Notes: generated by a model from the sequence alone, not told the origin. A stretch of 64,000 nucleotides of DNA from an uncultured Candidatus Saccharibacteria bacterium (GCA_964454245.1 CAYVSX010000001.1:7379-71378), one strand, 5' to 3'; positions 1-31,692 are shown, counted from the first letter of the stretch. Translations and numbers: made by a program.

Positions 1-3000
1 GAACCGACGCCTCCCGAGCCAGAAGCCCCAGAGCGGCGCCCATTAGTATTGAGCTTTGTGGATGAAACGCATGATGCGCTGGCGGCAGCCCGCGATGCCG
101 CCGAGGCTAGGTTGCGTAACGAAGTTCAGGCCGAGCCAGAGGGTGGTAATCGCTTTACGCGTGGCTTCAAGCGCTTTATCCGTAATATATGGAAGGGCGA
201 GCACGGCCTAGCGCGCGCCTACTACCGCGAAAAGTACAAGCAAGAGGCGCTAGAGCAAATTCAGCAGCAAAATGATGTATTGGCGCACGAAACCGGCGAC
301 ATGGATGCGCGCACCAGGGCGCAATTGGCCACCATCGATCGCTTCCAGTCTGAATACGACGAATCTATCCATAATGAGGCCGGTGAGCAGCGCAAAGAAG
401 TTGCCCATAATACCGAATTTGCCCGCCGCACCAAAGAGCTTATCGCACGCTACGTTAGTGGTGAAATTACCGATGCCGGTGCGTTAGAGGAAGAGCGTGG
501 CCGCATGTTGCAAGAGTTGCAAGATAGGGGCAACGAACAGCTGATTGGCGAAGGTAAGGTGCGCATAGATAACCTACTGGCGATTGCCGATCAAGTGAAA
601 GCGATGGTCGACCATGGTGAAAGCATTGAGCGCGTGCTAGAAGGTATGAAGATTTATAGCGGCGAGGCGCGCTCAAACGTGCGTACCGAAGCGCATATAA
701 CCAAGGCAGAGCAAATAATTGATAAACTACAGCGTCGCACGGTGCTGGGTGGGTTAATTGGCCCAGTTGGCTTAGGTGCGGCAGTGGCCGGCGTGATGGG
801 CGTATTCTCTCTTGGGCGCGGCACTATCGCTAGGGCTACGGCAGTTACCGGCATACCAGGTGTGGTAACGGGCGGCTTGGCCGGCTACCGTGAGTGGACA
901 CGCTTAAAGGAAGAGCGCGCCCTACACTCGCGTGAAATGGCACAGGGCAAGCGTTACAACGAAGGCGACAAGCGCCGCACGCAGATGGAAGCAACACGCT
1001 ACGAGACTAAGCAAGCCTCGGCAGTTACTTCACAGCTAAATGAGCTATTACGTGGCGAGGGTGAGCCAGGTGCTGACGCGGTGCAGGCGGCGTATCATGC
1101 GATTGCTAAAATCGAGGCGAACATTAGTCGGTCGGATAAGGAAAAGATAGACTTTTTGGAGTTTTCGGACGTGGCGAGCGTCGAGCAAGAGCGCCGCGAC
1201 CTTGATGTGGCGCGGGCAACTGCTAAGGTGCGGCTAAAGAGTAATTTAGCCAAGCTGCCAGCTGAATTCCGCACTAAGTTTGGTATCGATGAAAGCAAGC
1301 CAATCAATGCCAGCCTAGCGGCCTATATGGCTGAAATGGATAAAGATATTACTAGCGAAGTCACTGCTAAGGACAAGGTTTATAATAAGTTGCGTAACCG
1401 ACGGGTAGCGACAGCCGTTGCGATTGGTGCGGTAGGTGGCTTTACTGCCGGGCTGGCAGCGCAAGAGATAGTGGCATCCGTCAACAGCAATTACGATGGA
1501 TTGATTGAACATATGATACACGGCGGCGCGCCATCTGCTGATGGCCGACAAACCGTGCTAGAGGGCTGGTTCCATGGCCAGCCGGGTGAACACATTACCG
1601 CATCAGATAAATATGTGCCGCACAGCATAGGGGCAAATAAAAATAACATTGATTTGCCCGATAATTACAAGGTGGTTAATAACCCAGACGGTAGCTTTGG
1701 AATTGAAGCGCCAAATGGCACTAAGGTTGCTGATAATCTAGAGCTAAATAAGAGCGGCAAGCTAACCAAAGATAGCTTGGCTATACTGACTGATAAAAAA
1801 ATTGAAATGCATCAAAACATGGTGGACAGCGGCAAAACCGAGAAAGTATCGGTGAAGGAATACTTGAAGCTGCATAAAGATGATGTAACGCATGTAAAGC
1901 GTGATTTCTGGTACGACCAGAATACGCCAAAGCCAAAGTTCGATAAAAACGAGCTTGGTCTCGATTGGGGCGGCAAAGACCACACTGGCGTTGGCAAAAA
2001 CGGTAGCATTAAGATGACGATTAGTGGTATGACAGCCGATGGGTCGTACCATGGTGATAAAAATGCGGCATGGAATAGCCTAGCTAAAAAGGGTGACATG
2101 GCGTTGGCGGTATCGGCTACACGTGGCACGCAAACCGATGTATTTTTGATAAAAGTAAAACCAAATGGTAGTATAAATATCCCCGAAGATAGACCAGCTC
2201 GTAAGTTCTTTAGTATTAAGAACGGCCACGCGGTATTTAAGGGCGCATTTGCTGAGGCGGTAGAGGTACGCGAAACAAAGGATGGCACCACTCATATTGC
2301 GCCGCTAGCTACCATTACTGGTGAAAACTCAGTAAAGAGTATAGACCAAACCGTAAAAGTACCACACATCAAGCTAACTCCACCAGAAATCAACACCCCT
2401 GGCCGCGAGGTAGAGGGCTTTGGTGTGCCGGTATGGACACATCGCCGCCCGCTTGAGAGAATAAAGCGCGAGGCCATGGGTAATGGTTACGGATATGGGT
2501 ATGGCTCGGCATACTCTTTCGAGCGAAACTTTGCAGAGAAATGGCTGACTGAACGCTCGCCTAGCCTAAACAGCAACCCGGATGTCGATCTTAACACGGG
2601 TAAAGAGCTTAAGTGGTACAAGAACCAGCAAATAAAAATACGTGGTGAGTCTTACATCAAAGAGCTTGACGGGTATATTGATAATAGTAAAGAGCTACAG
2701 TCTATTGGTAATGAAACGAAAGCAATTGTTTGTATCCCTGTAGCGGCAGCAAATGAGTCGGAAAATATTTATCGCACGCTATCCATGTTTGGTCGCCAAG
2801 ACATTGAGTCACAGAAAGCCAGCGTTATATTCCTTAATGTCAACTGGAAGCAGTCGCTTGAGAATGACCCGGCAGAGAAAGCTAAGATTCAAAAAACATT
2901 GGCCGAGATTGAGCGGGCTAGACAGGACTTTCCGGATCTTCGCATCGCAACTTTTGAGAAAGTATGGTCTGATCAATTTGTAAAAGAGAAACAGGGTAAG

Positions 3001-4014
3001 ATATACGGTGAAGTGATAAAGGTCTTGTATGACACTGCGGCCTTTGCCATGGAAAGAAGTATTGCCGAAGGTAGACGCGATTCGAGCGCGGAAGCATTGT
3101 TGATTACGAATGATGCAGATACCGAAGGTATGAGCTATAAATATTTGAAAAACTACATAAAATCCATGGAAGAAAATCCAAAGCAAGATACCTTTACTGC
3201 AACCATTCGGCGAGGAGTAAGCGCGTACGAAGACTATCCTGGCTATGCTATGGTTTCTAACTTTTATGCGAATACAAGCATGGCTATGCTTCACCATCAG
3301 GCAAAAGGTGATGGCGGAGTTTCGACGGATGGTCCGAATTCTGCATTCCGTATGTCTTTGTACGCCGCGATGGGTGGCGTGGAAGCCGAAATTGGCGGTG
3401 GCGCTGATGGTGCGTTAGCGCAACGTGCATGGATTGCACGCTTTAGCCCTGGAAAACAAACTATATGGCGCAAAATTCAAGGTAAGAAAGAAGCGGCTGG
3501 TTCAAACCGTGTTTTGGGTAAGTTTGTATCTGGCGCTTCGGTTGACACGATGCCTGACCGGCTTTTGGGCGCGTATCGTCAAGGCAAATGGGTTGCGAGT
3601 GGATGGGACGGGTTTGATAACGGTGGTTATGAAAGTCGTGAGGCAGTGGCGCAGGCTGGTACGATTGGGCCAGAAAACCCTGAAACAGAGATCGACGATA
3701 TTGCGAAACGAATTGAAATATCCATTTCTGCTTTTGGCTCTCGATGGTGGCGCAAGCCATCGGCTATTGCTACGTCATTAAGAACGACATTCGGCCCGAA
3801 TAAGCCTGGGCATGAGCTGTATCGCTATACTTGGGACTTCTCAAAGAGTAGTGACGGCGCCTTTGTCTTTGAGTTTACAGATGAGGGCAAGAAGGAATTA
3901 CAGAAACGCATGCTATATGACCGTAAAGGGAACCGCTCAAACATTGGCGCACGCATGCGACATCATCTTTATGATAAGCTAAAGAGTGATAGAGAGCCTG
4001 TATTACTAAGCTAG
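1..4014 (+). CDS. Large multidomain protein (>1336 aa, 5'-truncated): Pro/Glu-rich start, helical region, Gly/Ala hydrophobic segments, beta-rich middle, C-terminal GT-A (GT2-like) glycosyltransferase domain
   Basis: Frame is open from base 1 (EPTPPEPEAPERRPLVLSF...), so the true start lies upstream of the window. GT2-like motifs: AIVCIPVAAANESENI (~2722), LLITNDAD (DxD at 3112-3120), GPNSAFR...YAAMGG. Confidence 0.75.
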   Translation, partial: EPTPPEPEAPERRPLVLSFVDETHDALAAARDAAEARLRNEVQAEPEGGNRFTRGFKRFIRNIWKGEHGLARAYYREKYKQEALEQIQQQNDVLAHETGDMDARTRAQLATIDRFQSEYDESIHNEAGEQRKEVAHNTEFARRTKELIARYVSGEITDAGALEEERGRMLQELQDRGNEQLIGEGKVRIDNLLAIADQVKAMVDHGESIERVLEGMKIYSGEARSNVRTEAHITKAEQIIDKLQRRTVLGGLIGPVGLGAAVAGVMGVFSLGRGTIARATAVTGIPGVVTGGLAGYREWTRLKEERALHSREMAQGKRYNEGDKRRTQMEATRYETKQASAVTSQLNELLRGEGEPGADAVQAAYHAIAKIEANISRSDKEKIDFLEFSDVASVEQERRDLDVARATAKVRLKSNLAKLPAEFRTKFGIDESKPINASLAAYMAEMDKDITSEVTAKDKVYNKLRNRRVATAVAIGAVGGFTAGLAAQEIVASVNSNYDGLIEHMIHGGAPSADGRQTVLEGWFHGQPGEHITASDKYVPHSIGANKNNIDLPDNYKVVNNPDGSFGIEAPNGTKVADNLELNKSGKLTKDSLAILTDKKIEMHQNMVDSGKTEKVSVKEYLKLHKDDVTHVKRDFWYDQNTPKPKFDKNELGLDWGGKDHTGVGKNGSIKMTISGMTADGSYHGDKNAAWNSLAKKGDMALAVSATRGTQTDVFLIKVKPNGSINIPEDRPARKFFSIKNGHAVFKGAFAEAVEVRETKDGTTHIAPLATITGENSVKSIDQTVKVPHIKLTPPEINTPGREVEGFGVPVWTHRRPLERIKREAMGNGYGYGYGSAYSFERNFAEKWLTERSPSLNSNPDVDLNTGKELKWYKNQQIKIRGESYIKELDGYIDNSKELQSIGNETKAIVCIPVAAANESENIYRTLSMFGRQDIESQKASVIFLNVNWKQSLENDPAEKAKIQKTLAEIERARQDFPDLRIATFEKVWSDQFVKEKQGKIYGEVIKVLYDTAAFAMERSIAEGRRDSSAEALLITNDADTEGMSYKYLKNYIKSMEENPKQDTFTATIRRGVSAYEDYPGYAMVSNFYANTSMAMLHHQAKGDGGVSTDGPNSAFRMSLYAAMGGVEAEIGGGADGALAQRAWIARFSPGKQTIWRKIQGKKEAAGSNRVLGKFVSGASVDTMPDRLLGAYRQGKWVASGWDGFDNGGYESREAVAQAGTIGPENPETEIDDIAKRIEISISAFGSRWWRKPSAIATSLRTTFGPNKPGHELYRYTWDFSKSSDGAFVFEFTDEGKKELQKRMLYDRKGNRSNIGARMRHHLYDKLKSDREPVLLS

Positions 4015-4024
4015 GGAGGGATAT

Positions 4025-4360
4025 ATGAATAGCGACGAGAAACTACAGCAACTTGAAGAATATCGAGCGCAAGCGCTGGAAAGCCTAGTAGGTATAAGTG
4101 ATTACCTTGTGAATAGCGAAAATGCTGATTATCAGACGATAATTACACTTGCGCATTCAACAGGTAATACTACACTATTTGGTAAGGCGCTTGAAATGAT
4201 TGACAAGATAGACGATCGGGAAGAGCGTAGCGAGGCTTTATTGGCGTTTCTTGATGGTATTGAGTATGCTATTGCTGATAATGTGGGGGGTGATAAGGAG
4301 GTCGACGTAACTCGCGAAGGCGATACTAGGGACACCGAGGAAAAGCTGCCAACGACGTAG
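4025..4360 (+). CDS. Small acidic helical hypothetical protein (111 aa)
   Basis: GGGAGGG RBS before ATG; 10 nt after the preceding gene; amphipathic helices. Confidence 0.8.
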   Translation: MNSDEKLQQLEEYRAQALESLVGISDYLVNSENADYQTIITLAHSTGNTTLFGKALEMIDKIDDREERSEALLAFLDGIEYAIADNVGGDKEVDVTREGDTRDTEEKLPTT

Positions 4361-4515: not shown

Positions 4516-7041
4516 TTGGAACAAACAATGGCAGAAGGACTCCCTAAAAAAAGCAATGAAGGTAGCGGTGAAGAGGTGCTGTCGCTTGATGAGGCGCGCA
4601 AAAGATTGCTAGAACAAGCGGCGGCTGGCGATACTGAGCCGTCGATTCTTGAAGATGAGCGGGTCGTGGAGCCTGTTGCGGAAACCAATGAACCAGAGAC
4701 GGTTGGGGTTAGTGAGGCGACCGCTCCAGAAGTTGCAGCCGACCAAGCTGAGAACGATCCATACAATGAACTATCTTTTGCCCAACTAGAAAAGCGATGG
4801 CATGACCTAACCGTTGCCTATAGTACTAGCTATGGAGATGCAACATCCAAAAAACTAGCCACCGATGCTTACGAGAAACTAAAATCACCCGAATTGACTG
4901 AACGACTAAAGCGTGAGCTGCAAGACGCCAGAAATAAATACGGTAAGCTATTCGATAAGTCATCAGAAGCATCGCGTTTGGTGGCTGCTGATGTAACGGC
5001 TAGATATGATGACCTAAATAACCTAATTGCATGGCAAGCTAAAGAGGCCGAAAAGGCTCCTGCTAGAGGTGAAATAAATGAAGCTACGGATACTAGCGAG
5101 CCTGCTGAGCCTACTAAAACTAGCGAGCCAAGCGAACCTGCGGAACCTATAGAGCCAGCAGAGCCTGTGGTGCCGCTAGAGCAACCCATGGAACCTTCAG
5201 GTTCTGTAGAGACACCTGCTGAACCTATAGCGGAAGCTAGTGCTGGCGAGGAGACCGAGAGCGGCGAGCCCAACCCTGCAGAAGATATCGACGACAAGCA
5301 AGGCCCCATAGACAAGCATTTTGAAGCCTACAAAAAGGCCATAGGTGACGAGGCAGAAGAGCAGCGCGCAGCCTATGATGCTATGACCGATGAAGAAAAA
5401 GTGGCCTATCATGAAAACGCGCAAACAAACGATTTGGCAGACAAAATCTTAGAAAACCTGCAAAAGCCAGGTGACGAAGCTGAGCCTGTTGGCGCAGACG
5501 GCGCACCAGACAATACGCCACCGACCCACGAGTCTGAACCGCCTACCGAACCAACGGTGGATCCAACTACTACCGAACCAGGTGAGCCAACTACCGATCC
5601 AACTGCCGAGCCATCACCAGAGCCGCTATTGCCGTACGACGAAGCCGAGCTAGAGCGCTTGCGCCGAGCATACATTGAATCGCCAACCGCCGAAACCAAG
5701 CAAGCCTTGAGCGACTATGTCGAGACTCATACTGTCGAGAAAATGCCGCTAAACGAAGCCTATGATAAAGCCTACAACGAGCGAATTAGTGAAATTCGTG
5801 CCGAAGTATCGGCGCTAGAGGGCGAGGGTGGCGTGAAGTATGGCGACCGGCTAGATGCGGCACTGCGCAGCTATGCCGAGCTAAAGGCTAATGATGAAAC
5901 CTACAATGGCAATATACGTATAGGCAAGTGGACGGTCTATCGTGGCCGTGCTAAGCGCGAAGCCAAGCTAAAAGAACGCGAAAGCGAGCTGATGGCGGCG
6001 AAAATCGCCTACGAACTAGCTGTTCAGTCAAAAATCGAGGCAGCCCAGCTGTACTTTGGCAATGAGCAGCAGGTAAAAGCTCAGCGGCGCAACGACCTAC
6101 TAACACGAGTACGTGAGCTAGATAAACAAACGCGCGACGCCACTAACGATGTGCTTGATGCGCGTCAAGATAGGGGCGGCTGGTTGAGAAAAGCAGCCAT
6201 AGGTATAGGCAACTGGCTACGTGGCGGCGGCAAGGTGAAAAAATGGCTAAAGGCTGGCGGCACCGGCCTAGTGGTAACTGGCGGTACCAAGATATTGGCT
6301 TCGGTGGCTGGAGCTGGCTTCCCAATAGGTACACTACTAGTTGCGGGCGTAGGTGCGGGTGCTAGCCTGGCGGTGCGTACTAGTGCCAAGACGGCGGCGT
6401 TAAATGACCTACGCAAGGAAAGTCAGGGCCGGACGGCTATGAGTGACGCCGAATTTGAGGAATTACGAGCATCTACAGAGCGTAATGAAGAGAGTGGTGA
6501 GAGAGGCTCTGAGTATATTATTAAGAAGATTTTTGAAAACTCTAGAGAACAAGGGCGCGAAAGGGTGGATAAGGCTAATAAAGAAGCTCGTGACGTGATG
6601 CTACGATACGGTGTTGGCGCGGCTGCTGGTACACTGGCATCACTTGGCTGGGATTTGGTTAACCAACAGCTATCGGGTACTCACCCACCAGATGGAGCGG
6701 GCAATGATAAGCTGGGCAAGCCTGCGGTCGTTGATGGCTCGGGTGTAGGCGCCGATATGGGTAATGGCGGAGGCAGATTTGAGTGGCCGCGCGGCGCCAG
6801 TAAAATCACAAGTGACGAAGGTTGGTATCACCAGTTCCAAGACATGGGCATGAGCAGTAAAGAGGCTCAGGCGCTATTTGCCGATAAAGATGTTATGAAG
6901 CAATTGGTGAAGATTGATGCAGCCTATGTAGACAATTCGTCGACCATTGGCGGCTATGGCATCAATATGCCAGCCAACGGACATTTGTCTAAAAAAGCCA
7001 TGGAAATCATCGGTACGGCTATGAAAGCTAAGGGATTTTAA
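4516..7041 (+). CDS. Large acidic Pro/Glu/Thr-repeat protein with coiled-coil region and Gly/Ala hydrophobic segments (start may be ATG 4528)
   Basis: 841-aa ORF; EP/TEP repeats; hydrophobic stretches GGTGLVVTGG...GASLAV (~6253-6375) and YGVGAAAGTLASLGWDLV (~6607-6660); upstream TATACT box. Confidence 0.8.
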   Translation: MEQTMAEGLPKKSNEGSGEEVLSLDEARKRLLEQAAAGDTEPSILEDERVVEPVAETNEPETVGVSEATAPEVAADQAENDPYNELSFAQLEKRWHDLTVAYSTSYGDATSKKLATDAYEKLKSPELTERLKRELQDARNKYGKLFDKSSEASRLVAADVTARYDDLNNLIAWQAKEAEKAPARGEINEATDTSEPAEPTKTSEPSEPAEPIEPAEPVVPLEQPMEPSGSVETPAEPIAEASAGEETESGEPNPAEDIDDKQGPIDKHFEAYKKAIGDEAEEQRAAYDAMTDEEKVAYHENAQTNDLADKILENLQKPGDEAEPVGADGAPDNTPPTHESEPPTEPTVDPTTTEPGEPTTDPTAEPSPEPLLPYDEAELERLRRAYIESPTAETKQALSDYVETHTVEKMPLNEAYDKAYNERISEIRAEVSALEGEGGVKYGDRLDAALRSYAELKANDETYNGNIRIGKWTVYRGRAKREAKLKERESELMAAKIAYELAVQSKIEAAQLYFGNEQQVKAQRRNDLLTRVRELDKQTRDATNDVLDARQDRGGWLRKAAIGIGNWLRGGGKVKKWLKAGGTGLVVTGGTKILASVAGAGFPIGTLLVAGVGAGASLAVRTSAKTAALNDLRKESQGRTAMSDAEFEELRASTERNEESGERGSEYIIKKIFENSREQGRERVDKANKEARDVMLRYGVGAAAGTLASLGWDLVNQQLSGTHPPDGAGNDKLGKPAVVDGSGVGADMGNGGGRFEWPRGASKITSDEGWYHQFQDMGMSSKEAQALFADKDVMKQLVKIDAAYVDNSSTIGGYGINMPANGHLSKKAMEIIGTAMKAKGF
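5092..5630 (+). repeat. Degenerate coding micro-repeats (EP / SEP / TEP)
   Basis: TSEPAEPTKTSEPSEPAEPIEPAEP and TEPTVDPTTTEPGEPTTDPTAEPSPEP; actagcgagcc occurs twice. Confidence 0.7.
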
Positions 7042-7056: not shown

Positions 7057-7482
7057 ATGTTTGATATAGATGATGACTTTTTAACCAGTATTGGCTACGA
7101 TGTCAGTGTGCTAACGCCAGAGCAGCGCCAGCAATATAGCGGCGAGATACAAGAAGAAATGAACCAGCGGCTATCGGAGCGCTTGGCTATGGAGCTGACT
7201 GAGGAGCAAGCTGCGGATATGCAAACGATTCAAGATAGCCATGAGCGGGCCGAACAGTGGCTATACGAATTTCATAGCGATTTTGCTAGCCGAGATGACT
7301 ATCAATCACTGGTACAGGCGCTGGGCGAGCTAGATGCCAAGCAATTTTACGCTACAGCGCTGTGGATGCAAGATGCCGTGCCGGGCTATGGGGTAATAGC
7401 CCAGGAATTGCTAAACGAGTACCAGGCTGAGCTAATAGAAAAGGCTAAATTGGTGGACACGGCACTGGGCGATGTGGCGTAA
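7057..7482 (+). CDS. DUF5663-like small acidic protein (divergent paralog 1)
   Basis: MFDIDDDFLTSIG...RLSERLAMELTEEQ...QWL aligns by eye with the next gene; AAGGGG RBS. Confidence 0.7.
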   Translation: MFDIDDDFLTSIGYDVSVLTPEQRQQYSGEIQEEMNQRLSERLAMELTEEQAADMQTIQDSHERAEQWLYEFHSDFASRDDYQSLVQALGELDAKQFYATALWMQDAVPGYGVIAQELLNEYQAELIEKAKLVDTALGDVA

Positions 7483-7519: not shown

Positions 7520-7963
7520 ATGTTTCAATTAGACGATAAATTTTTGCAAGATGTAGGCCTAGGCGGCCTGCCCGAGGATCAGAAGAAGTTATTTTTAGAC
7601 CATTTTCGTGAGCAGCTAGAGCTGCGTGTGGGGACGCGCCTGAGTGAAGGCCTAAGTGACGCTCAGCTAGAAGAGTTTGAAAGCTTTATCGACCGCAAAG
7701 ATGACCGCGTAAATGCGTGGCTAGCGGCTAATGTGCCAAACTACGAGGAAGATTCGATCTACCAGCAGCTAAAGGCTGGTGCGCCCGAGCAAATCCCACA
7801 AAACGTAGTGTTGGCCGAATACGCCAGCCTAAAGTGGCTCGGCCTCAATCGCCCCGACTATAAAGATGTCGTTACGGCGACTATGAACGAGCTAAAAAGC
7901 GAAATTATCGCCAACCGCGATGCTATTTTGGGTGCCGATACTGGCGCTCAGCCAGCTGCATAA
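7520..7963 (+). CDS. DUF5663-family protein (paralog 2)
   Basis: MFQLDDKFLQDVGLG...HFREQLELRVGTRLSEGLSDAQLEEF, recalled as a typical CPR DUF5663 signature; own TGGTACAAT box and GGAGG RBS. Confidence 0.75.
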   Translation: MFQLDDKFLQDVGLGGLPEDQKKLFLDHFREQLELRVGTRLSEGLSDAQLEEFESFIDRKDDRVNAWLAANVPNYEEDSIYQQLKAGAPEQIPQNVVLAEYASLKWLGLNRPDYKDVVTATMNELKSEIIANRDAILGADTGAQPAA

Positions 7964-9400: not shown

Positions 9401-9431
9401 TGGTAATTATTATATCACATAACAGGGGTTA

Positions 9432-11369
9432 TTATAAAAGCGAAGCTGGGTCGATATCATATTGCCAGCCGCGGGGTGGTAGGGCGGCGATGATATCTAG
9501 CAATCGGCTACGCTGGGACGATTTAACGGTAATTTGCCAGCGGTAGGTGTCGCGCACGCGTTCGTAAAATGCCGGGGTAGGGCCGAGTATTTGCACATCT
9601 TTATATTCACGGCGCAGTTGGCCGGCTAATAATTTAGCATTGCGGATAGCTGCTGCTTCGGTTTTGTACACGCAAGTGAGTTTTAGCAGGTATGAAAAGG
9701 GCGGAAAGTGTCCGCGCTGGCGCTGGGCTATGGTATCGGTGTAAAAATCGCTGTAGTTTTGGGCGATGCCATACTGTACGGCTGGTGCGGTGGGCTGGTA
9801 GCTTTGCACTATTACTTCGGTGGCGTGGGACGATCGCCCTACACGCCCGACTACCTGGGCTAATAGCTGAAAGGTACGTTCGCTGGCCGCAAAATCGGGC
9901 AAGCTCAGCCCGGCATCGGCTTGCACTACACCCACCGTGCGCAAGTGGGGCAGGTCTAGCCCCTTGGCGATTACTTGGGTGCCAACGATTATTTTTATGT
10001 CGCCATCGTACAGCGCTTGGTACTGCGATTCCACAGTTTTATCGTCGTCGCTATCGCCATCAAACCGAGCAATTTTGTAGTTCGGGAATAGCTTGGCTAG
10101 CTCGGATTCTATCAGCTTAGTGCCGATGCCTTTATGGATGATATCGGTTGATTGGCAGGTTGGGCACGAGGTTGGCACGCGTTCGCGGTTGTCGCAAATG
10201 TGGCAGCGCAGCTGGTGAATATCGGCGTGCAGGGTGTAGGGTACAAAGCAGCGCGGGCAGGTGGCCGACCAGCCACAGGCTTCGCACAGCGTGGTACTGG
10301 CACTGCCGCGACGGTTATGAAACACCAGTACTTGCTCGCCGCGCTCTAGCGTGGCGGCCATAGTATCGAGCATGTTGTCAGAAAAGAAACGGTGGCGCAC
10401 AAAGCCAATTTTTTTAGTCATATCTACAACGGTGACTTTGGGTTTAATCGTATCTTTACGCGCTTTGGCGGCCAGGGTAATTATTGGCCGCCCGTAGTGC
10501 TGGGCTAGGTAATATTCGCTCACCAGCGGTGTAGCCGTACCTTGCACTACCACACAGCCATGCTCGCGCGCCAGTACGCCAGCCACGCGCAGGGCCGAAT
10601 AGCGCGGCGCTTTATCTTGCTTAAAGCTCGGTTCGTGGGCTTCATCTATGATGATAGCGCCGATGCTGGGCAAAGGTAAGAACAGCGCCGAGCGTGGGCC
10701 AATCACTACCATTGGCGTGGTGCTGGCGGCTACCTGCTGCCAGCACAGGTGGCGCTCGGCCTCGGTTTGGCGCGAGTGGGTGAGCACGATGTCGCTAAAA
10801 TGCTGCTGAAACTCAGCCACTAGCTGCGAGGTCTGGGCAATCTCTGGCACTAGCATAACTACTGACTTACCGCTGGCCAGTACCTGTTTGGCGTATTCAA
10901 TGTAGATGGCCGTTTTGCCGCTACCAGTGATACCATGCAACAGTACTGTACCGGGGGAGGCTTTAGATATTACCGCTAGTGCTGCAGCCTGATCTTTATT
11001 GAGTAAAAAATGTGTTCGGTCGCGTTGTAACTGGGGTGTGGCCTTTTTGCTAGCCCGGCGTTGTTTGGTGATGCCGCGTGGCAGCACCGTCTGTAGCACG
11101 GTGGCAATATGGGTGCTGTAATATTCACTCATCCACAAAATCGTCGCCACCAGCTGGGCGGGCAGCGGTGGTATGGCTAGTACACCGCTAATTTCTTTGG
11201 TGGCGTAGGCCGGCTTCGCTACTTCGCTCATCACCACGCCAGTTAGGGTAGTTTTGCCCACAGACACCTCTACAAAACTACCAACCTCTAGTGACGTACT
11301 ACTAGCATAGCTAAAGGTGCCGCTGTTGGCGCGGACAATCTTCAGCGGTGCTACCTCGTAATACTGCAT
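9432..11369 (-). CDS. priA: Primosomal protein N' (replication restart helicase)
   Basis: HGITGSGKT, DEAH, CxxC clusters, GTQVIAKGLD, QVVGRVGR. Start moved to ATG 11369 because a TATAAT box lies 7 nt upstream. Confidence 0.95.
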   Translation of the reverse strand: MQYYEVAPLKIVRANSGTFSYASSTSLEVGSFVEVSVGKTTLTGVVMSEVAKPAYATKEISGVLAIPPLPAQLVATILWMSEYYSTHIATVLQTVLPRGITKQRRASKKATPQLQRDRTHFLLNKDQAAALAVISKASPGTVLLHGITGSGKTAIYIEYAKQVLASGKSVVMLVPEIAQTSQLVAEFQQHFSDIVLTHSRQTEAERHLCWQQVAASTTPMVVIGPRSALFLPLPSIGAIIIDEAHEPSFKQDKAPRYSALRVAGVLAREHGCVVVQGTATPLVSEYYLAQHYGRPIITLAAKARKDTIKPKVTVVDMTKKIGFVRHRFFSDNMLDTMAATLERGEQVLVFHNRRGSASTTLCEACGWSATCPRCFVPYTLHADIHQLRCHICDNRERVPTSCPTCQSTDIIHKGIGTKLIESELAKLFPNYKIARFDGDSDDDKTVESQYQALYDGDIKIIVGTQVIAKGLDLPHLRTVGVVQADAGLSLPDFAASERTFQLLAQVVGRVGRSSHATEVIVQSYQPTAPAVQYGIAQNYSDFYTDTIAQRQRGHFPPFSYLLKLTCVYKTEAAAIRNAKLLAGQLRREYKDVQILGPTPAFYERVRDTYRWQITVKSSQRSRLLDIIAALPPRGWQYDIDPASLL

Positions 11370-26333: not shown

Positions 26334-26387
26334 GGAGCGCAAATCATAATTTTGCGGGTGGAACCGCAGAAAGAGGTGTTGAAGAGT

Positions 26388-28223
26388 ATGAAGATTAAAA
26401 AGTTAATGTTTACTGGCTTAGCAGTAGCCGCGATTATTGCACAGCCATTTTACGCTGTGTTGCAGGGGGGGGTCGCCCACGCAGCTAGCGGTGTGGTTAC
26501 TAATATTAATCCAGACGGCTGGGAATGGGGTGGCGCGGCATGGCCGGCTGGCGTTCCTGGTACAGCAACAATCAAAGCCGAAACGGGTACCGGTGGTAAT
26601 GGCGCATTGTTGCTTTCTACACCAGCTGACGAAAGCTATATATGGACGGTAAAGCAGGTTAATGAAACGCTAGCCAGTGTAAATACATTATCTTACAAAA
26701 CTAAGCACGTTGCAGGGCCTGCATATACAGCACCTGCATTACTACTTGGTATTGATGCAGATGGTGACACCGCAACTACGGCGGACGGTTTCTATGCTTT
26801 TTTTGAACCTGTGTACAACCATCCGACGCCAAGCACTATAGGTGCTGGCTGGAACACTTGGAATATTGATGCAGCCACATCTAATTTTTGGAGCTTTAGC
26901 ACGGTGGGTTCTAAGGGTGGTGCGAATGGCGCTAATATGTTTACCATTGATTATGTAAAGAGTGTTTATCCTTCAGCATCTGTTGTTGAGTATTACCTAA
27001 ACATGGGCACCTACAACACCGGCTGGAACGCTTGGGCCGACCAGATTACTGTCAACGGCACTATGATCGCTGATTTTGAACTTGAGGAAGTAGTAACAAA
27101 TGTAACAACCGGCGCCGTGTATGAAGACCTACAGTCTGCCGTGGATGCTGCAAGTGCAGGTGATGAACTACGCCTCAACCAGAACATTACGCTGAGTGAT
27201 GATGTTGATATAATTAAACCTTTGACTATTGACGGCAACGGAAAAACCATCACAGCAAGCTTTAATAAAACTGGCAACGATAATAACTCGGCGCTAGCCG
27301 TTTCAGCAAATGACGTGGCTATTAAAAATGTTAAACTCGTAGGCAACAATCTTGATTGGCCTCTTGGCTTGCATGGCATAAATGCTTACCAAGTGACCAA
27401 CCTACTAGTTGATGGCGTAACCGCAGAAAACTTTTTGACTGGTATCTTGTATAATGGCTCAACTGGCACGATTCAAAACGTCCATACAATCAACAACAAG
27501 TGGCACGGTATAAATATCGATAAGGTTGGCTCAAATGTACAAGTGCTTGGTACAAATACTCACACCGAAACCCTTAATATCTATGCCGAAGATATTAACA
27601 CAGTAACGATTTATGCTCCCGCATATGAATCTAGCCATCCTGGGTTGATAGACCCTAACACTTTACTGCCTCGTCCAAGCGACCGCGTTTACACACTTAA
27701 AGTTGTAGATAACGGCGACGGTGATGACAAAGAAGCCGACAATACCGGCAATGGTGGTAGTACTTCAGCCTCTGCTAATGCTAACAACGGCGAAACCATT
27801 GCAACCACCAGCACCAGTGCTACGACTGTAGCCGACGAAGCAGTAGTTGCCGTAGCCGGCGCAACCGATACAAAAACTGCTACTAGCGACAAAGACGTCG
27901 ACGTACTAGGCGACGACCAAGCCACCGATACATCTAGCACACAAGATAGCAAAAAGCACTGGTCGCTAGTAAACCTACTGCTAGCAGCTGCCGCAACCGT
28001 AATGTCTGTCATTACACTTGCTGGTATCCGTGGTAGCCAGGGCAAGCAGCGCAACCTACGCCTACTAACCCTAGTACCTGCCGTAGTTGCAATCGTAGCA
28101 CTGCTACTAGTAGAGGACTTTACGGCTAAGCTAGGCTGGGTAAACGGCTGGACACTACTGTTCGCCCTAATCGCCATCGGCCAAATCGCCCTAGTAGCTG
28201 GCAACAAAACTACTGAAGAATAA
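26388..28223 (+). CDS. Secreted, membrane-anchored surface protein with parallel beta-helix (pectate-lyase-like) module
   Basis: Signal peptide MKIKK...AHA; KPLTIDGNGKTIT and GINID repeats; Thr/Ala stalk; three C-terminal TM helices. Confidence 0.8.
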   Translation: MKIKKLMFTGLAVAAIIAQPFYAVLQGGVAHAASGVVTNINPDGWEWGGAAWPAGVPGTATIKAETGTGGNGALLLSTPADESYIWTVKQVNETLASVNTLSYKTKHVAGPAYTAPALLLGIDADGDTATTADGFYAFFEPVYNHPTPSTIGAGWNTWNIDAATSNFWSFSTVGSKGGANGANMFTIDYVKSVYPSASVVEYYLNMGTYNTGWNAWADQITVNGTMIADFELEEVVTNVTTGAVYEDLQSAVDAASAGDELRLNQNITLSDDVDIIKPLTIDGNGKTITASFNKTGNDNNSALAVSANDVAIKNVKLVGNNLDWPLGLHGINAYQVTNLLVDGVTAENFLTGILYNGSTGTIQNVHTINNKWHGINIDKVGSNVQVLGTNTHTETLNIYAEDINTVTIYAPAYESSHPGLIDPNTLLPRPSDRVYTLKVVDNGDGDDKEADNTGNGGSTSASANANNGETIATTSTSATTVADEAVVAVAGATDTKTATSDKDVDVLGDDQATDTSSTQDSKKHWSLVNLLLAAAATVMSVITLAGIRGSQGKQRNLRLLTLVPAVVAIVALLLVEDFTAKLGWVNGWTLLFALIAIGQIALVAGNKTTEE

Positions 28224-28242
28224 ATAAGGCTACTGACCAACC

Positions 28243-28271
28243 AATAGACCCCGCAAACTGCGGGGTCTATT
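28243..28271 (+). terminator. Hairpin terminator
   Basis: aatagaccccgc aaact gcggggtctatt. Confidence 0.7.
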
Positions 28272-28422
28272 ATGTTGTGGGTAAAATGTCACTGTAAAAT
28301 ATGTTGTAGTGGTTCCTGAAATTTTCCCTAAAACGCTTGATTTTTTGACAAAAGTGTAGTATAATTGTGTAAAGATCATAAAGCTGGTGTGGAGACCAGC
28401 AGTGAGGTGAGAGGAATATTTT

Positions 28423-30708
28423 ATGGCACTACAGCTACGCGGGGGACATACTTCGGGCTTTGGCAAGGCATTATTAACATCTGCAGCAGTGCTAGCGTTA
28501 ACGGCTCAACCGTTTAGCGGCGCAGTACTTAACGGGCAGTTGTCGCAGCAAGCAAGTGCTGCTGCAGTACAGAACGGCTACACATGGGAAGTGTCAAACG
28601 CTGCTGATTTCCAGGCAGCACTCAACGACCCTGCGGTGAATCATATTACACTAACAGCTGATATTGATGCATCTGCTGGTCCATCACTACTGCTTACTCG
28701 TAGCAATGTTACTATCAATGGTAATGATAAAACGCTTATCGCGCCTAACCTCGGCGGTGTATGGGTGAGTAATGGTAATAACTATGGCCTCAAAATCTAT
28801 CAAGCTTCAAATATCACCATCAACAGTCTAAAGGTACGTGGCGGTAATGCAGCTATTCTGGTTAACGGTTCAAGTGTTAAGCTGACTGGTAATACGCACG
28901 TGTCGGATAACACATTTGGCGGCATTGAAGTATCTCGTGGCGGCGGTGTAGCAGCTAACTCGCAGCTAACTCTGCAAGGTGTACTATGGGACGAGCAGCA
29001 CAAAGAAAGCGCCACTCGCCCAGCCGTATGGGTAGTTGATGGCCAAGGTAGTGTAGACGTGAGCGGACTTCACCCTAGCTATACATTATCACTTGCGACA
29101 CATGTTAAGCCAGGTCAAACGCAGTACTATGTCCACCAAGAAAACAGCGGCACAGTCGCAACTAATGTAACGCAGTCAAAAACATATGCCACCCTTACCG
29201 GTGCTGTAACGGCTGCTAATGCTAACGATGTTATCGAGCTAAATCAAGACATCATCACTCCTAATATGGTAACCATTGATAAGCCGCTTACCATTGACGG
29301 TAAGGGTAAGACAGTGACGGCTAGCTATAGCTTTACTACCAATGGTGTTGATAACGCAGTATTTACGATAACTGCTAATAACGTAACGCTAAAAAACCTA
29401 ACCACTACCAATACTTCTACCGGTGCAAAGCCGCACGGCGTCGTAGTGCAACAGGTGACAGGTGCCAAGCTTGATACGGTAACACTACGAAATGGCCGCG
29501 CTGGCTTAATTGTCAACAGCTCGAATGTAGAGGTAAACAATATTACTACAAGTGGTAATAGCTGGTACGGCATTAACGTCGATAACAAATACGCACCAGC
29601 TAAATTAACGGTGCTTGGCGTATCAAACCATGAGGAGGCTAGCCACATTGCCATCGATGATCGCGCTATGACTACTGCAACAGTGAGCGACCCGAACTTG
29701 CAGTACGTCCGCTACTGGGCGGGTGCTGGATACAGCTACGTACTTGACCGCGCAGCGCCTACTGTTTCGCTATCGGTTACCGCTTATAATCCTACGTCGT
29801 TTGATGTAGCTGCGGCTGATGATCACAGCGTAACGCGCATTGATTATTCTATCTGGGCAGATGGTAACACAAGGCAAATTGGGGTGTGGGGTAACAACAT
29901 CAATTTGCAACCAACCTACAACCAAACCGTCACCCAGTACTGCGAGCGTGTACCTGATGGTACTACAACGAAATGCGTCTGGCATCCTTTCTCCGACCTA
30001 GCCGAGGGTGAATACACGCTGCGCGCTACCGTAAAAGATGTACGGGGCAAGGTAACCAATGCAACTAGCCAGAATTTCATTATCGATAAAACGGCGCTTA
30101 CCGTAACAGCCAATGATATTGCTGTGATTGTAGTTGGTCAAAAGGCGATTGTAACTGGCACTGTTAACAAGCAAAATATTACCAGCATCAAGGCATCGGT
30201 CACGGTAAACGGTACACTGTATGAAGCGGACGGTACACTAATCGGCCAAGATTTCGGCTTTGAAATTGAAGATCTGCCAGTCGGCCAGCACAATGTAGTG
30301 ATAACAGTAAAAGATGCTGCCGGTAACGAAGTGCAAATAACAAAGGTTGCTAAGGTGAACGCTGGTACGTCACCTACAGTCGTCACCGATGCGACTAGCT
30401 CAAATAGTGATGGTGAAGTACCTGCCAATTTGGCCGAAGAGGCTGCACCCCAGATATTTATAGCGCCAATCGTTGCTTTGGGCGACAACGATGTGCTAGG
30501 GCAGCAGGATACAACGGCTAGCCAGCCAATGCAGGCGAATGTCAGTGACCAATCTGGCGAAGAAGTTAAGGGCGCAACCGACGAAAAAGACGGCACATTT
30601 AGCCCACTAGGCTTTGCCTGGTACTGGTGGTTGGTGGCACTGGCCGCAATCGCTGGCCTGTGGTGGCTGCTAGCTGCACTGCGTAAACGCGGCAACGAAG
30701 AAGGATAG
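28423..30708 (+). CDS. Surface protein with two beta-helix modules, Ig-like domains and a C-terminal WYWW membrane anchor
   Basis: Signal peptide; NVTINGNDKTL and KPLTIDGKGKTVT modules paralogous to the upstream gene; GFAWYWWLVALAAIAGLWWLLAALRKR tail. Confidence 0.8.
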   Translation: MALQLRGGHTSGFGKALLTSAAVLALTAQPFSGAVLNGQLSQQASAAAVQNGYTWEVSNAADFQAALNDPAVNHITLTADIDASAGPSLLLTRSNVTINGNDKTLIAPNLGGVWVSNGNNYGLKIYQASNITINSLKVRGGNAAILVNGSSVKLTGNTHVSDNTFGGIEVSRGGGVAANSQLTLQGVLWDEQHKESATRPAVWVVDGQGSVDVSGLHPSYTLSLATHVKPGQTQYYVHQENSGTVATNVTQSKTYATLTGAVTAANANDVIELNQDIITPNMVTIDKPLTIDGKGKTVTASYSFTTNGVDNAVFTITANNVTLKNLTTTNTSTGAKPHGVVVQQVTGAKLDTVTLRNGRAGLIVNSSNVEVNNITTSGNSWYGINVDNKYAPAKLTVLGVSNHEEASHIAIDDRAMTTATVSDPNLQYVRYWAGAGYSYVLDRAAPTVSLSVTAYNPTSFDVAAADDHSVTRIDYSIWADGNTRQIGVWGNNINLQPTYNQTVTQYCERVPDGTTTKCVWHPFSDLAEGEYTLRATVKDVRGKVTNATSQNFIIDKTALTVTANDIAVIVVGQKAIVTGTVNKQNITSIKASVTVNGTLYEADGTLIGQDFGFEIEDLPVGQHNVVITVKDAAGNEVQITKVAKVNAGTSPTVVTDATSSNSDGEVPANLAEEAAPQIFIAPIVALGDNDVLGQQDTTASQPMQANVSDQSGEEVKGATDEKDGTFSPLGFAWYWWLVALAAIAGLWWLLAALRKRGNEEG

Positions 30709-30724
30709 ATTATTCCAGAATACC

Positions 30725-30757
30725 AAAAGCGAGAGCGGGCTAAACGCTCTCGCTTTT
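30725..30757 (+). terminator. Rho-independent terminator
   Basis: aaaagcgagagcg ggctaaa cgctctcgctttt. Confidence 0.75.
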
Positions 30758-30789
30758 ATTTGCAAATAAGTGTATACTTGTAGCTATAA

Positions 30790-31692
30790 ATGCCAGCCAA
30801 ACAAACACGCAAAACACCAGTGGCAAATAGCTTAAAAAAGCGCGTGCATAAACGCGTTAAATTAGCTGTGGTGCCACATAAGGCCAATCAGTTTCGCCCG
30901 CATGCGGTTAGCCGCTATGGCATTGCTATAATAGTGGCCTTTGTGTTGCTGGCGCAAGGGATGTACAACAGCATCACCAGCGGCAACATACTAGGCACCG
31001 AGGCACAAATTACCAGTAGCGGGCTGCTGCAGGCCACTAACGATGCGCGTAAAGCCGATGGCGAGCAGCCGCTAACTATAAATGCTAAATTATCTGATGC
31101 CGCCAACCGCAAAGTACATAATATGTTTGATCAGCAATATTGGGCGCACACCGCACCCGATGGCACAACGCCGTGGCATTGGTTTGGTGAGGTAGGCTAT
31201 GTGTATGCCGATGCCGGTGAAAACCTGGCCAAAAACTTTACCACCGACGACAGCACGGTGGCGGCCTGGCTGGCATCGCCCACCCACCGCGCCAATGTGC
31301 TAAAGCCACAGTATACCGAAGTTGGCTTTGCCGTGATGAGCGGCACGCTAGGCGGCAAGCCCACCACGCTGATAGTGGCGCTGTATGGCAAGCCCGATAC
31401 CGCCATGGTGCAAGGCGCAGCTAGTACGCAAAGTTCGGATATTAACATGCCGGTAAGTGTGATGGCGCAAATTGGCCTGGGATTGCAGGCGCTCACACCG
31501 GCCGCTATTGCTAGTATAGTGGTGCTGGCTGTGGCCGCCAACATCGCCTTTATAGCCCATATGTACCGCCGCAAGCTACCGCTGGCATTACGCCGTAGCT
31601 GGTACCGCCACCACGGCATGTACAAGGCAATCGGTTTTACCGGCCTGGCAATTGTGATTGTGTTTGCTTATGGCGGGGTGGGGCAGATTTAA
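30790..31692 (+). CDS. CAP (SCP) domain membrane protein
   Basis: YWAH, AGENLA, WLASPTHRANVL; N- and C-terminal TM helices. Confidence 0.9.
   Translation: MPAKQTRKTPVANSLKKRVHKRVKLAVVPHKANQFRPHAVSRYGIAIIVAFVLLAQGMYNSITSGNILGTEAQITSSGLLQATNDARKADGEQPLTINAKLSDAANRKVHNMFDQQYWAHTAPDGTTPWHWFGEVGYVYADAGENLAKNFTTDDSTVAAWLASPTHRANVLKPQYTEVGFAVMSGTLGGKPTTLIVALYGKPDTAMVQGAASTQSSDINMPVSVMAQIGLGLQALTPAAIASIVVLAVAANIAFIAHMYRRKLPLALRRSWYRHHGMYKAIGFTGLAIVIVFAYGGVGQI

Follow-up and report, generated by a model that had tools for sequence, protein, structure and literature searches.

The window analysed here is a 64,000-nucleotide (nt) stretch from an uncultured Candidatus Saccharibacteria bacterium (GCA_964454245.1 CAYVSX010000001.1:7379-71378); Saccharibacteria are tiny bacteria that live attached to other bacteria. 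Its first 4,014 nt (positions 1–4014, + strand, stop codon at 4012–4014) belong to one big gene and encode part of P0001, a database protein of 1,910 amino acids (aa) that is 100% identical to the window-encoded product. An open reading frame (ORF) lister reported 49–4014 (1,321 aa); frame 1 is nevertheless open from base 1. Because of this open frame and the identical 1,910-aa database protein, the gene must be cut by the left edge of the window, which holds 1,337 codons of its 3′ part and leaves ~573 N-terminal residues outside. Residues are numbered here as in the window ORF (residue n is P0001 residue n+589). We show that this ORF is most of a Saccharibacteria-specific core protein and that the giant protein represents an uncharacterised family, with a divergent glycosyltransferase (GT) domain set in a novel architecture. 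The GT domain was previously unrecognised and is apparently intact.

A first-pass annotation, made from the nucleotide sequence alone, had read a toxin-like fusion of Gly/Ala hydrophobic hairpins, a β-rich part and a C-terminal GT-A glycosyltransferase at 739–4014. All the features listed there lie in frame 1 of the + strand, but position 739 is in the middle of the gene. The Gly/Ala segments were found at 739–891 (translation TVLGGLIGPVGLGAAVAGVMGVFSLGRGTIARATAVTGIPGVVTGGLAGYR) and 1405–1470 (translation VATAVAIGAVGGFTAGLAAQEI), the GYGYGYG linker at 2485–2505 and the DAD triplet at 3112–3120, inside LLITNDADTEG. The helical N-half and the β-rich middle (strands at residues ~514–783) were likewise recovered from the AlphaFold2 secondary structure.

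The C-terminal ~500 aa (2512–4011, + strand) were modelled with AlphaFold2 from a 21-sequence alignment (pLDDT 86.7, pTM 0.88). The model is an α/β domain with the Rossmann-like α/β/α GT-A fold, which continues into a further C-terminal subdomain of ~130 aa and a tail rich in Arg. When it was compared with the PDB by Foldseek, 24 matches had E ≤1e-3, and the top 30 were all GT-A glycosyltransferases, mostly GT2 synthases, at probability 1.00 (hyaluronan, chitin and cellulose synthases, PcManGT, chondroitin polymerases (K4CP) and TarP; E 3e-6 to 4e-3). The predicted fold, together with an invariant DxD, bears out the earlier GT-A, GT2-like call, but the domain is not visible to sequence methods. 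Scans of the big protein with Pfam, NCBIfam and PHROGs gave no match above threshold, and none of the curated GT2 models (PF00535, PF13641, PF13632, PF13506) exceeded its gathering score for the window protein. Searches of the PDB by sequence (phmmer and profile hidden Markov model, with both halves) returned no glycosyltransferase and nothing significant. Sub-threshold matches to the GT2 clan of Pfam were observed in four of the 46 members scanned: Glyco_transf_21 (E 0.0025, two members), Glyco_trans_2_3 (0.0033) and Glyco_tranf_2_3 (0.17).

With GT2 GT-A enzymes (hyaluronan synthase, 8smn and 7sp8; chitin synthase, 7wjo and 7stl; BcsA, 5ej1; PcManGT, 6yv7; K4CP, 2z86; TarP, 6hnq) the domain shares the predicted fold and a DxD after strand 4, but only 9–13% identity, and no Pfam GT2 model passes its threshold for the big protein. 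The processive GT2 synthases (hyaluronan, chitin, cellulose) have transmembrane (TM) helices and a membrane channel after the GT domain, which are absent here. In contrast to GT2 enzymes, the big protein has the ~130-aa C-terminal subdomain, a basic tail and >800 preceding residues without known relatives.

The metal/nucleotide-binding DxD motif (D1022-A-D1024, 3112–3120, +) directly follows the fourth strand (E212–215) of the Rossmann-like sheet; it is invariant in alignment A1 and at least 90% conserved in alignment A3. Six Asp/Arg residues, D1022, D1024, D1047, D1120, R1131 and R1171 (D217, D219, D242, D315, R326 and R366 in A1 numbering), are invariant in A1 and remain at least 90% conserved after relatives with other architectures are added. 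D1120 (3406–3408, +), at a helix start in G-x-G-x-D(D), is invariant or nearly so and is the candidate catalytic base, a putative counterpart of the GT2 "ED" region: the conserved G-x-N-x-A-x-R...GG...G-x-G-x-D-D...R block reads like the catalytic-base region of GT2 enzymes. R1171 (3559–3561, +), at the helix start of IDT...R-L-L and invariant in both alignments, is possibly the counterpart of the Arg in the GT2 (Q/R)xxRW motif. It is followed by Leu instead of Trp, and the conserved Gln of Q(Q/R)xRW is absent. At the end of strand 2, N932-W933 (2842–2847) combines an invariant Asn with a nearly invariant Trp; many GT2 enzymes have a base-binding Asp at this place, and the pair might reflect an unusual nucleotide-sugar donor.

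Conservation across hundreds of homologues shows that the hydrophobic segments, the DAD triplet and four further residues of active-site type are not chance features. As modelled, the C-terminal domain is probably an active, very divergent GT2-type enzyme domain. That it is instead a pseudo-enzyme, a structural or sugar-nucleotide-sensing module of a large scaffold protein that does its real work through the helical and β-rich parts, we regard as very unlikely. Sequence methods do fail to recognise the domain, the invariant Asn-Trp does replace the usual Asp, and the N-half is better conserved than the GT domain (59% vs. 38% mean column identity). However, at least 1,156 clusters, in several architectures, keep both DxD Asps, D1120, R1131 and R1171 invariant or nearly invariant, which argues for purifying selection on a catalytic site.

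The N-half was modelled with lower confidence (pLDDT 74.8). It consists of a helical region, a low-confidence hydrophobic hairpin, a 60-residue helix that holds a third hydrophobic segment, and then >20 strands. The N-terminal helical region (aa 1–230, 49–738, +; helices at pLDDT 70–90) starts exactly where family conservation starts, and had no structural or sequence match in the PDB, BFVD or a profile search of the PDB. A basic (pI 9.2), highly charged region with long modelled helices (886–1404, +) separates the hairpin from the third hydrophobic helix. The β-rich domain (aa ~510–785, 1576–2403, +) has >20 strands by DSSP and an unknown fold, with no PDB or BFVD structural match at E <0.08; its invariant residues include those of a highly conserved RDFWYDNNTP...NELGL.WGG motif. 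An RRPLE motif (consensus PRRPLE) and a disordered Gly/Tyr-rich linker that contains the GYGYGYG repeat (2440–2511, +; pLDDT <50) lead to the GT domain. The profile search of the PDB with the whole N-half was empty, and its best look-alikes by fold (PDB, E 0.14; BFVD, E 0.087, with tape-measure, minor tail and cyanophage pre-ejectosome proteins) were rejected as non-significant helical resemblance.

The Gly/Ala helical hairpin (742–885, +), read from the translation and conserved in homologues, comprises segment A (aa 232–256), an Arg-rich turn, RGTIAR (aa 257–262), and segment B (aa 263–279). The third Gly/Ala helix (VATAVAIGAVGGFTAGLAAQ, 1405–1464, +) has RNRR before it and an invariant Q-E (Q472, E473) after it; hydropathy revealed no hydrophobic segment C-terminal of residue 472, and the GT domain itself forms the C-terminus. 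Hydrophobicity was scored by Kyte-Doolittle (KD) values in a 19-residue window and by the summed Hessa free energy (dG). The three segments have KD 1.2–1.9 and dG +2.4 to +7.1: the hairpin segments KD 1.2–1.9 and dG +3.4 to +7.1, and the third helix, the best segment of the window protein, dG +2.4. For the true anchors and TM helices of other window proteins (signal peptidase, LCP, HtrA, RseP, FtsX and the anchors of surface proteins), KD is 2.0–2.75 and dG -3.4 to +0.2. Of 232 homologues with a length of 1,250 aa or more, not one contains a segment with dG <0; their best segments have a median dG of +3.25. Since anchors of the same genome score normally, weak hydrophobicity is a trait of the family and not of the organism, and spontaneous insertion by Sec/SRP is therefore not expected. 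Thus, the Gly/Ala helices of the first-pass annotation are real, conserved and unusual, and far less hydrophobic than true TM anchors of the same genome. Only the third helix shows a strong asymmetry of flanking charge (mean of 34 homologues, net +2.8 before and -1.9 after; K+R 5.4 before vs. 0.1 after).

A protein search with the big protein returned 210 homologues, Candidatus Saccharimonas aalborgensis L336_0707 included, all of them unnamed or "hypothetical" and none with a Pfam domain. With a profile of the C-terminal domain, the clusters at 50% identity numbered at least 1,156 (480 with E ≤1e-30), and the cluster names of the family gave no functional information. Genome loci with the big gene, gathered by a scan with the N-half alignment, are nearly all labelled Saccharibacteria or Saccharimonadales. 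The window's own sequence is present in wastewater and activated-sludge metagenomes, and short metatranscriptome contigs match the big gene, which suggests that it is expressed. Family conservation begins at P0001 residue ~590 (window base ~49) and extends to the C-terminus (occupancy 0.9–1.0, also over the entire C-terminal domain); by the same occupancy and identity profile, the first ~590 residues of P0001 are variable and mostly missing from homologues. Among the 120 homologues listed, all but one cover 86–100% of the query. In the best 150 representatives, the GT domain is at the same position in nearly all; variants gain a second GT copy or a tail, and none replaces the GT domain. One architecture is kept family-wide, the gene is inherited vertically, and it belongs to the core.

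The toxin reading, unlike the features listed with it, is not supported. Like TcdA/TcdB-type and polymorphic toxins, the big protein is giant and joins a GT-A domain bearing a DxD to a hydrophobic region rich in helices. TcdA/TcdB-type toxins carry an N-terminal GT domain (GT44-type), an autoprotease and receptor-binding repeats. Unlike these large clostridial-type toxins, the big protein has its GT domain at the C-terminus and no protease or repeat domain by Pfam, and no glycosylating toxin is among the top 50 Foldseek PDB matches of the C-terminal domain. A polymorphic toxin would swap its C-terminal domain; here all full-length homologues retain the same one, in the same architecture throughout, and no immunity-type gene is evident. 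The ~107-aa gene downstream is one conserved family across loci and, unlike a cognate immunity gene, does not vary with the C-terminal domain. Inheritance of the big gene is vertical, within a conserved cassette that neighbours housekeeping genes, and there is no polysaccharide biosynthesis locus around it. The single architecture and the conserved cassette near fmt-def-priA therefore rule out both a polymorphic toxin and a polysaccharide locus.

The cassette has three genes, a DUF5663 gene, the big gene and a small acidic gene, and usually lies beside fmt-def-priA. In the window, the downstream partner is p111 (4025–4360, +), a small acidic helical protein of 111 aa and pI 4.1 without a Pfam match. 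In 24 of 30 loci, the next gene after the big one is an ORF of ~97–117 aa, and phmmer places p111 in that family. Upstream, at a distance of a few bases, 26 of 30 loci have an ORF of ~101–111 aa (off this window); three of five upstream ~103-aa ORFs tested matched DUF5663, two of them above the cut-off. Both small flanking families are acidic (median pI 4.3–4.4). DUF5663 is an uncharacterised family for which no mention was found in the papers searched. The window also encodes a 147-aa DUF5663 protein (7520–7963, +; pI 4.4, Pfam E 7.8e-17), syntenic with the big gene and fmt, and a 141-aa paralogue (7057–7482, +); DUF5663 around the big gene thus comprises several paralogues, the 141- and 147-aa forms here and the ~103-aa form directly upstream elsewhere (loci L001–L037). 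DUF5663-fmt-def-priA follows the cassette in many genomes, even when the block is inverted. In a clade of shorter homologues (~1,320–1,365 aa; L002 9300–14314 and L006–L013), the whole cassette interrupts the S10 ribosomal-protein operon at the rpsJ–rplC junction, in the order small gene, DUF5663-like gene, big gene, small acidic gene. The window as a whole is core chromosome (fmt, def, priA, recJ, adk, map, maf, ftsA, ftsZ, ileS, parAB, signal peptidase, LCP ligase, HtrA, prfA, prmC, RseP and tRNA synthetases) and contains no polysaccharide locus.

The GT domain has other homes. Proteins in which it is fused to a polysaccharide pyruvyl transferase (PF04230, E 7e-21) or stands alone (together P0180, P0216, P0191, P0159 and P0242) have the same domain (~33% identity over ~470 residues) with the same invariant residues, but without the helical, hairpin and β-rich N-half. 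The stand-alone proteins, of 494–547 aa, have no signal peptide or TM segment; a soluble protein with two GT copies also belongs to the family, and a 554-aa form, whose start has stop codons upstream, begins with a true anchor and then RKRK. This order of anchor and RKRK would place the C-terminus of the 554-aa form inside. The stand-alone, double-GT, pyruvyl transferase-fused and anchored forms together point to a cytoplasmic working site. P0243, which looked like a TM-less "β domain + GT" protein, was rejected as evidence, its gene starting 18 nt from a contig end. The pyruvyl transferase-GT fusions are at L039 1953–4511 and L044 1233–3644, with a GT domain ~33% identical to that of the window; the G+C content of the L039 contig (69%) excludes a Saccharibacterium, and the fusion may reflect gene exchange between epibiont and actinobacteria-like lineages. 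One stand-alone member (L040 3–7137/L041) adjoins a sulfotransferase and a PRK/uridine-kinase-like P-loop protein, and a VirD4/TraG-type coupling protein is encoded ~1.7 kb upstream of it on the same contig (47% G+C).

GT-A/DxD enzymes use nucleotide sugars, which occur only in the cytoplasm. An amino-acid log-odds composition score, a weak classifier trained on only 17 cytoplasmic and 7 extracytoplasmic window proteins or domains, gave values in the cytoplasmic range to both helical regions and to the GT domain, the latter below all extracytoplasmic domains of the window. The relatives without signal peptides, the pyruvyl transferase fusion and this composition are hints of an ordinary cytoplasmic enzyme. 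Given the GT-A fold, the kept active site, the cytoplasmic donor, the cytoplasmic-looking relatives, the weak helices, the composition and vertical core inheritance, we favour, at a probability of ~0.42, a membrane-associated GT2 enzyme at the cytoplasmic face of the producer. The weak hydrophobic helices and their Arg/Lys-rich flanks would hold the protein on the cytoplasmic face of the producer membrane without Sec-type insertion, and the GT domain would use a nucleoside diphosphate (NDP)-sugar and a divalent cation for inverting transfer to a membrane-proximal acceptor. The acceptor could be a precursor linked to polyprenyl phosphate, an intermediate of a wall glycopolymer or an envelope protein. 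With genes for an LCP wall-polymer ligase and a sugar nucleotidyltransferase in the genome, plausible substrates for such a domain are at hand. The big protein would then be a housekeeping-type envelope-biogenesis enzyme on an unusual scaffold and not a toxin. The data show the fold, the conserved motifs, the architecture, the synteny and the weak hydrophobicity; the cellular location, the sugar donor, the acceptor and export of any kind are inferred.

Several points weigh against a cytoplasmic-face enzyme. It leaves the small acidic neighbours, the Arg-rich tail and the conserved sub-threshold hydrophobicity unexplained; its activity, donor and acceptor are predictions; the composition score is a weak classifier; and neither the window nor any of the related loci examined has the big gene among genes for polysaccharide or teichoic-acid synthesis. 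In addition, the β-rich domain is Asn/Thr/Gly-rich, with a composition on the cytoplasmic/extracytoplasmic border, and the flank charges of the third helix place the C-terminal half (β-rich and GT) outside if this helix spans the membrane.

The last two points are what a surface-displayed enzyme or adhesin would show. There, the hairpin would return to the cytoplasm and the third helix would serve as a type-II signal anchor that obeys the positive-inside rule, with the β-rich and GT-A domains outside, binding or remodelling the wall glycans of the producer or its host. Glycine-zipper helices can oligomerise in membranes, which would suit such an arrangement, and essential glycan-binding surface proteins are known in Saccharibacteria (PMC10633639). 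We nevertheless consider surface display improbable. The third helix, at dG +2.4 and ~1,040 residues into the protein, would be a poor Sec/SRP anchor; the GT domain has a cytoplasm-like composition, and its relatives have no signal peptides; and the nucleotide-sugar donor is absent outside bacterial cells. To our knowledge, the extracytoplasmic glycosyltransferases of bacteria are GT-C enzymes, not GT-A/DxD enzymes.

The features that a cytoplasmic-face enzyme leaves unexplained are hints in favour of a secreted or translocated effector, the bacterial-host version of the main idea of the first-pass annotation. The small acidic partners would keep the protein soluble until contact-dependent export, e.g. 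through the Saccharibacteria type IV secretion system (T4SS); the Gly/Ala helices would then enter the host membrane, and the GT domain, with its intact NDP-sugar site and cytoplasm-like composition, would use host NDP-sugars on a host target. The Arg-rich tail comprises the last 30 codons (3922–4011) and has a conserved ending of the R..R.LYG...P-[LA]-V-[AS] type family-wide. The net charge of these 30 residues is +4.8 (alignment), vs. -0.8 ± 2.8 for other window proteins, and is at least +3 in 77% of 120 homologues. VirB/D4 substrates carry positively charged C-terminal signals, which this tail resembles. The TM segments of type III/IV TM effectors are kept just below the hydrophobicity that targets proteins to the inner membrane and are shielded by chaperones (PMC6110835). 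The big protein is similar in having a few moderately hydrophobic helices below the targeting threshold (best segment dG +2.4, family median +3.25, 0 of 232 below 0), with conserved small acidic helical proteins of ~100 aa encoded on either side of it. The DUF5663 proteins of S. epibionticum carry structure-based labels of trigger-factor C-terminal and LTXXQ/Spy-like proteins, which are chaperone-like, and transposon sequencing in that organism classed the DUF5663 genes that precede fmt as essential or as causing a growth defect (PMC10633639). Saccharibacteria are obligate epibionts with an essential T4SS whose substrates are not known (PMC10633639).

Despite these hints, we hold an exported, host-inserted glycosylating effector to be doubtful. 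No homology to type III/IV TM effectors was found, and the resemblance is functional only. Unlike those effectors, the big gene is a conserved core gene and not an accessory one, the organism is a monoderm member of the candidate phyla radiation (CPR), and neither an export signal nor a secretion system is linked to the gene. No T4SS gene accompanies it in the window or in 36 related loci, and the S. epibionticum T4SS has no recognisable coupling protein (PMC10633639). For an effector, an invariant architecture and synteny with housekeeping genes would be unusual, the top structural matches include neither a glycosylating toxin nor an effector of that kind, and each hint has a mundane reading, e.g. 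a basic tail that binds anionic membrane. A bolder form of the idea, in which the family is the first conserved contact-delivered Saccharibacteria effector, with DUF5663 and p111-type proteins as chaperones, perhaps a T4SS as the route, glycine-zipper helices in the membrane of the host actinobacterium and GT2 glycosylation of a host envelope precursor or protein during host takeover, appears unlikely.

At two syntenic sites (before DUF5663-fmt, and between rpsJ and rplC), the S. epibionticum tables list no orthologue of the big gene (PMC10633639). Two genes downstream of the big gene, the window encodes an 841-aa protein (4516–7041, +) that resembles the big protein in general build, with a long acidic, Pro/Glu/Thr-rich disordered N-terminus, a Gly/Ala hairpin (aa ~584–624, marginally hydrophobic, dG +3.2 to +5.7) and a C-terminal part of ~190 aa. 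It has no Pfam match and is absent from the syntenic loci of other Saccharimonadales; homology to the big protein was rejected (hhalign probability 0.2). At the equivalent position, S. epibionticum has an essential hypothetical gene of 767 aa, SEML1_0161 (PMC10633639). Further downstream, 26352–31692 (+) is a stretch of lower G+C content (0.45–0.47) that encodes a run of probable surface proteins. One, of 623 aa, has a signal-like segment at the N-terminus and TM helices at the C-terminus; another, of 761 aa, combines a pectate-lyase-like adhesive domain with a C-terminal anchor; the third has a CAP domain. Between def and priA (9401–9451), one contig from an RNA run skips 49 bases and has 67 unrelated letters instead, which is probably strain variation.

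Little is known of how Saccharibacteria and other CPR bacteria, which are obligate epibionts, interact with their hosts, or of their envelope biology, and their lineage-specific core genes mostly lack annotation. These data suggest that (i) one of the largest such core genes would gain a testable activity, that of a predicted GT2-type glycosyltransferase with defined catalytic residues; (ii) the gene belongs to a conserved three-gene cassette, which is defined here together with the uncharacterised DUF5663 family; and (iii) helices held below membrane-insertion strength are a conserved property that separates three experimentally distinguishable models. Should the enzyme prove to work on the host or inside it, the protein would represent a novel type of inter-bacterial effector; should it work in the producer, the protein would define a new envelope-glycosylation scaffold, near-universal in the phylum.

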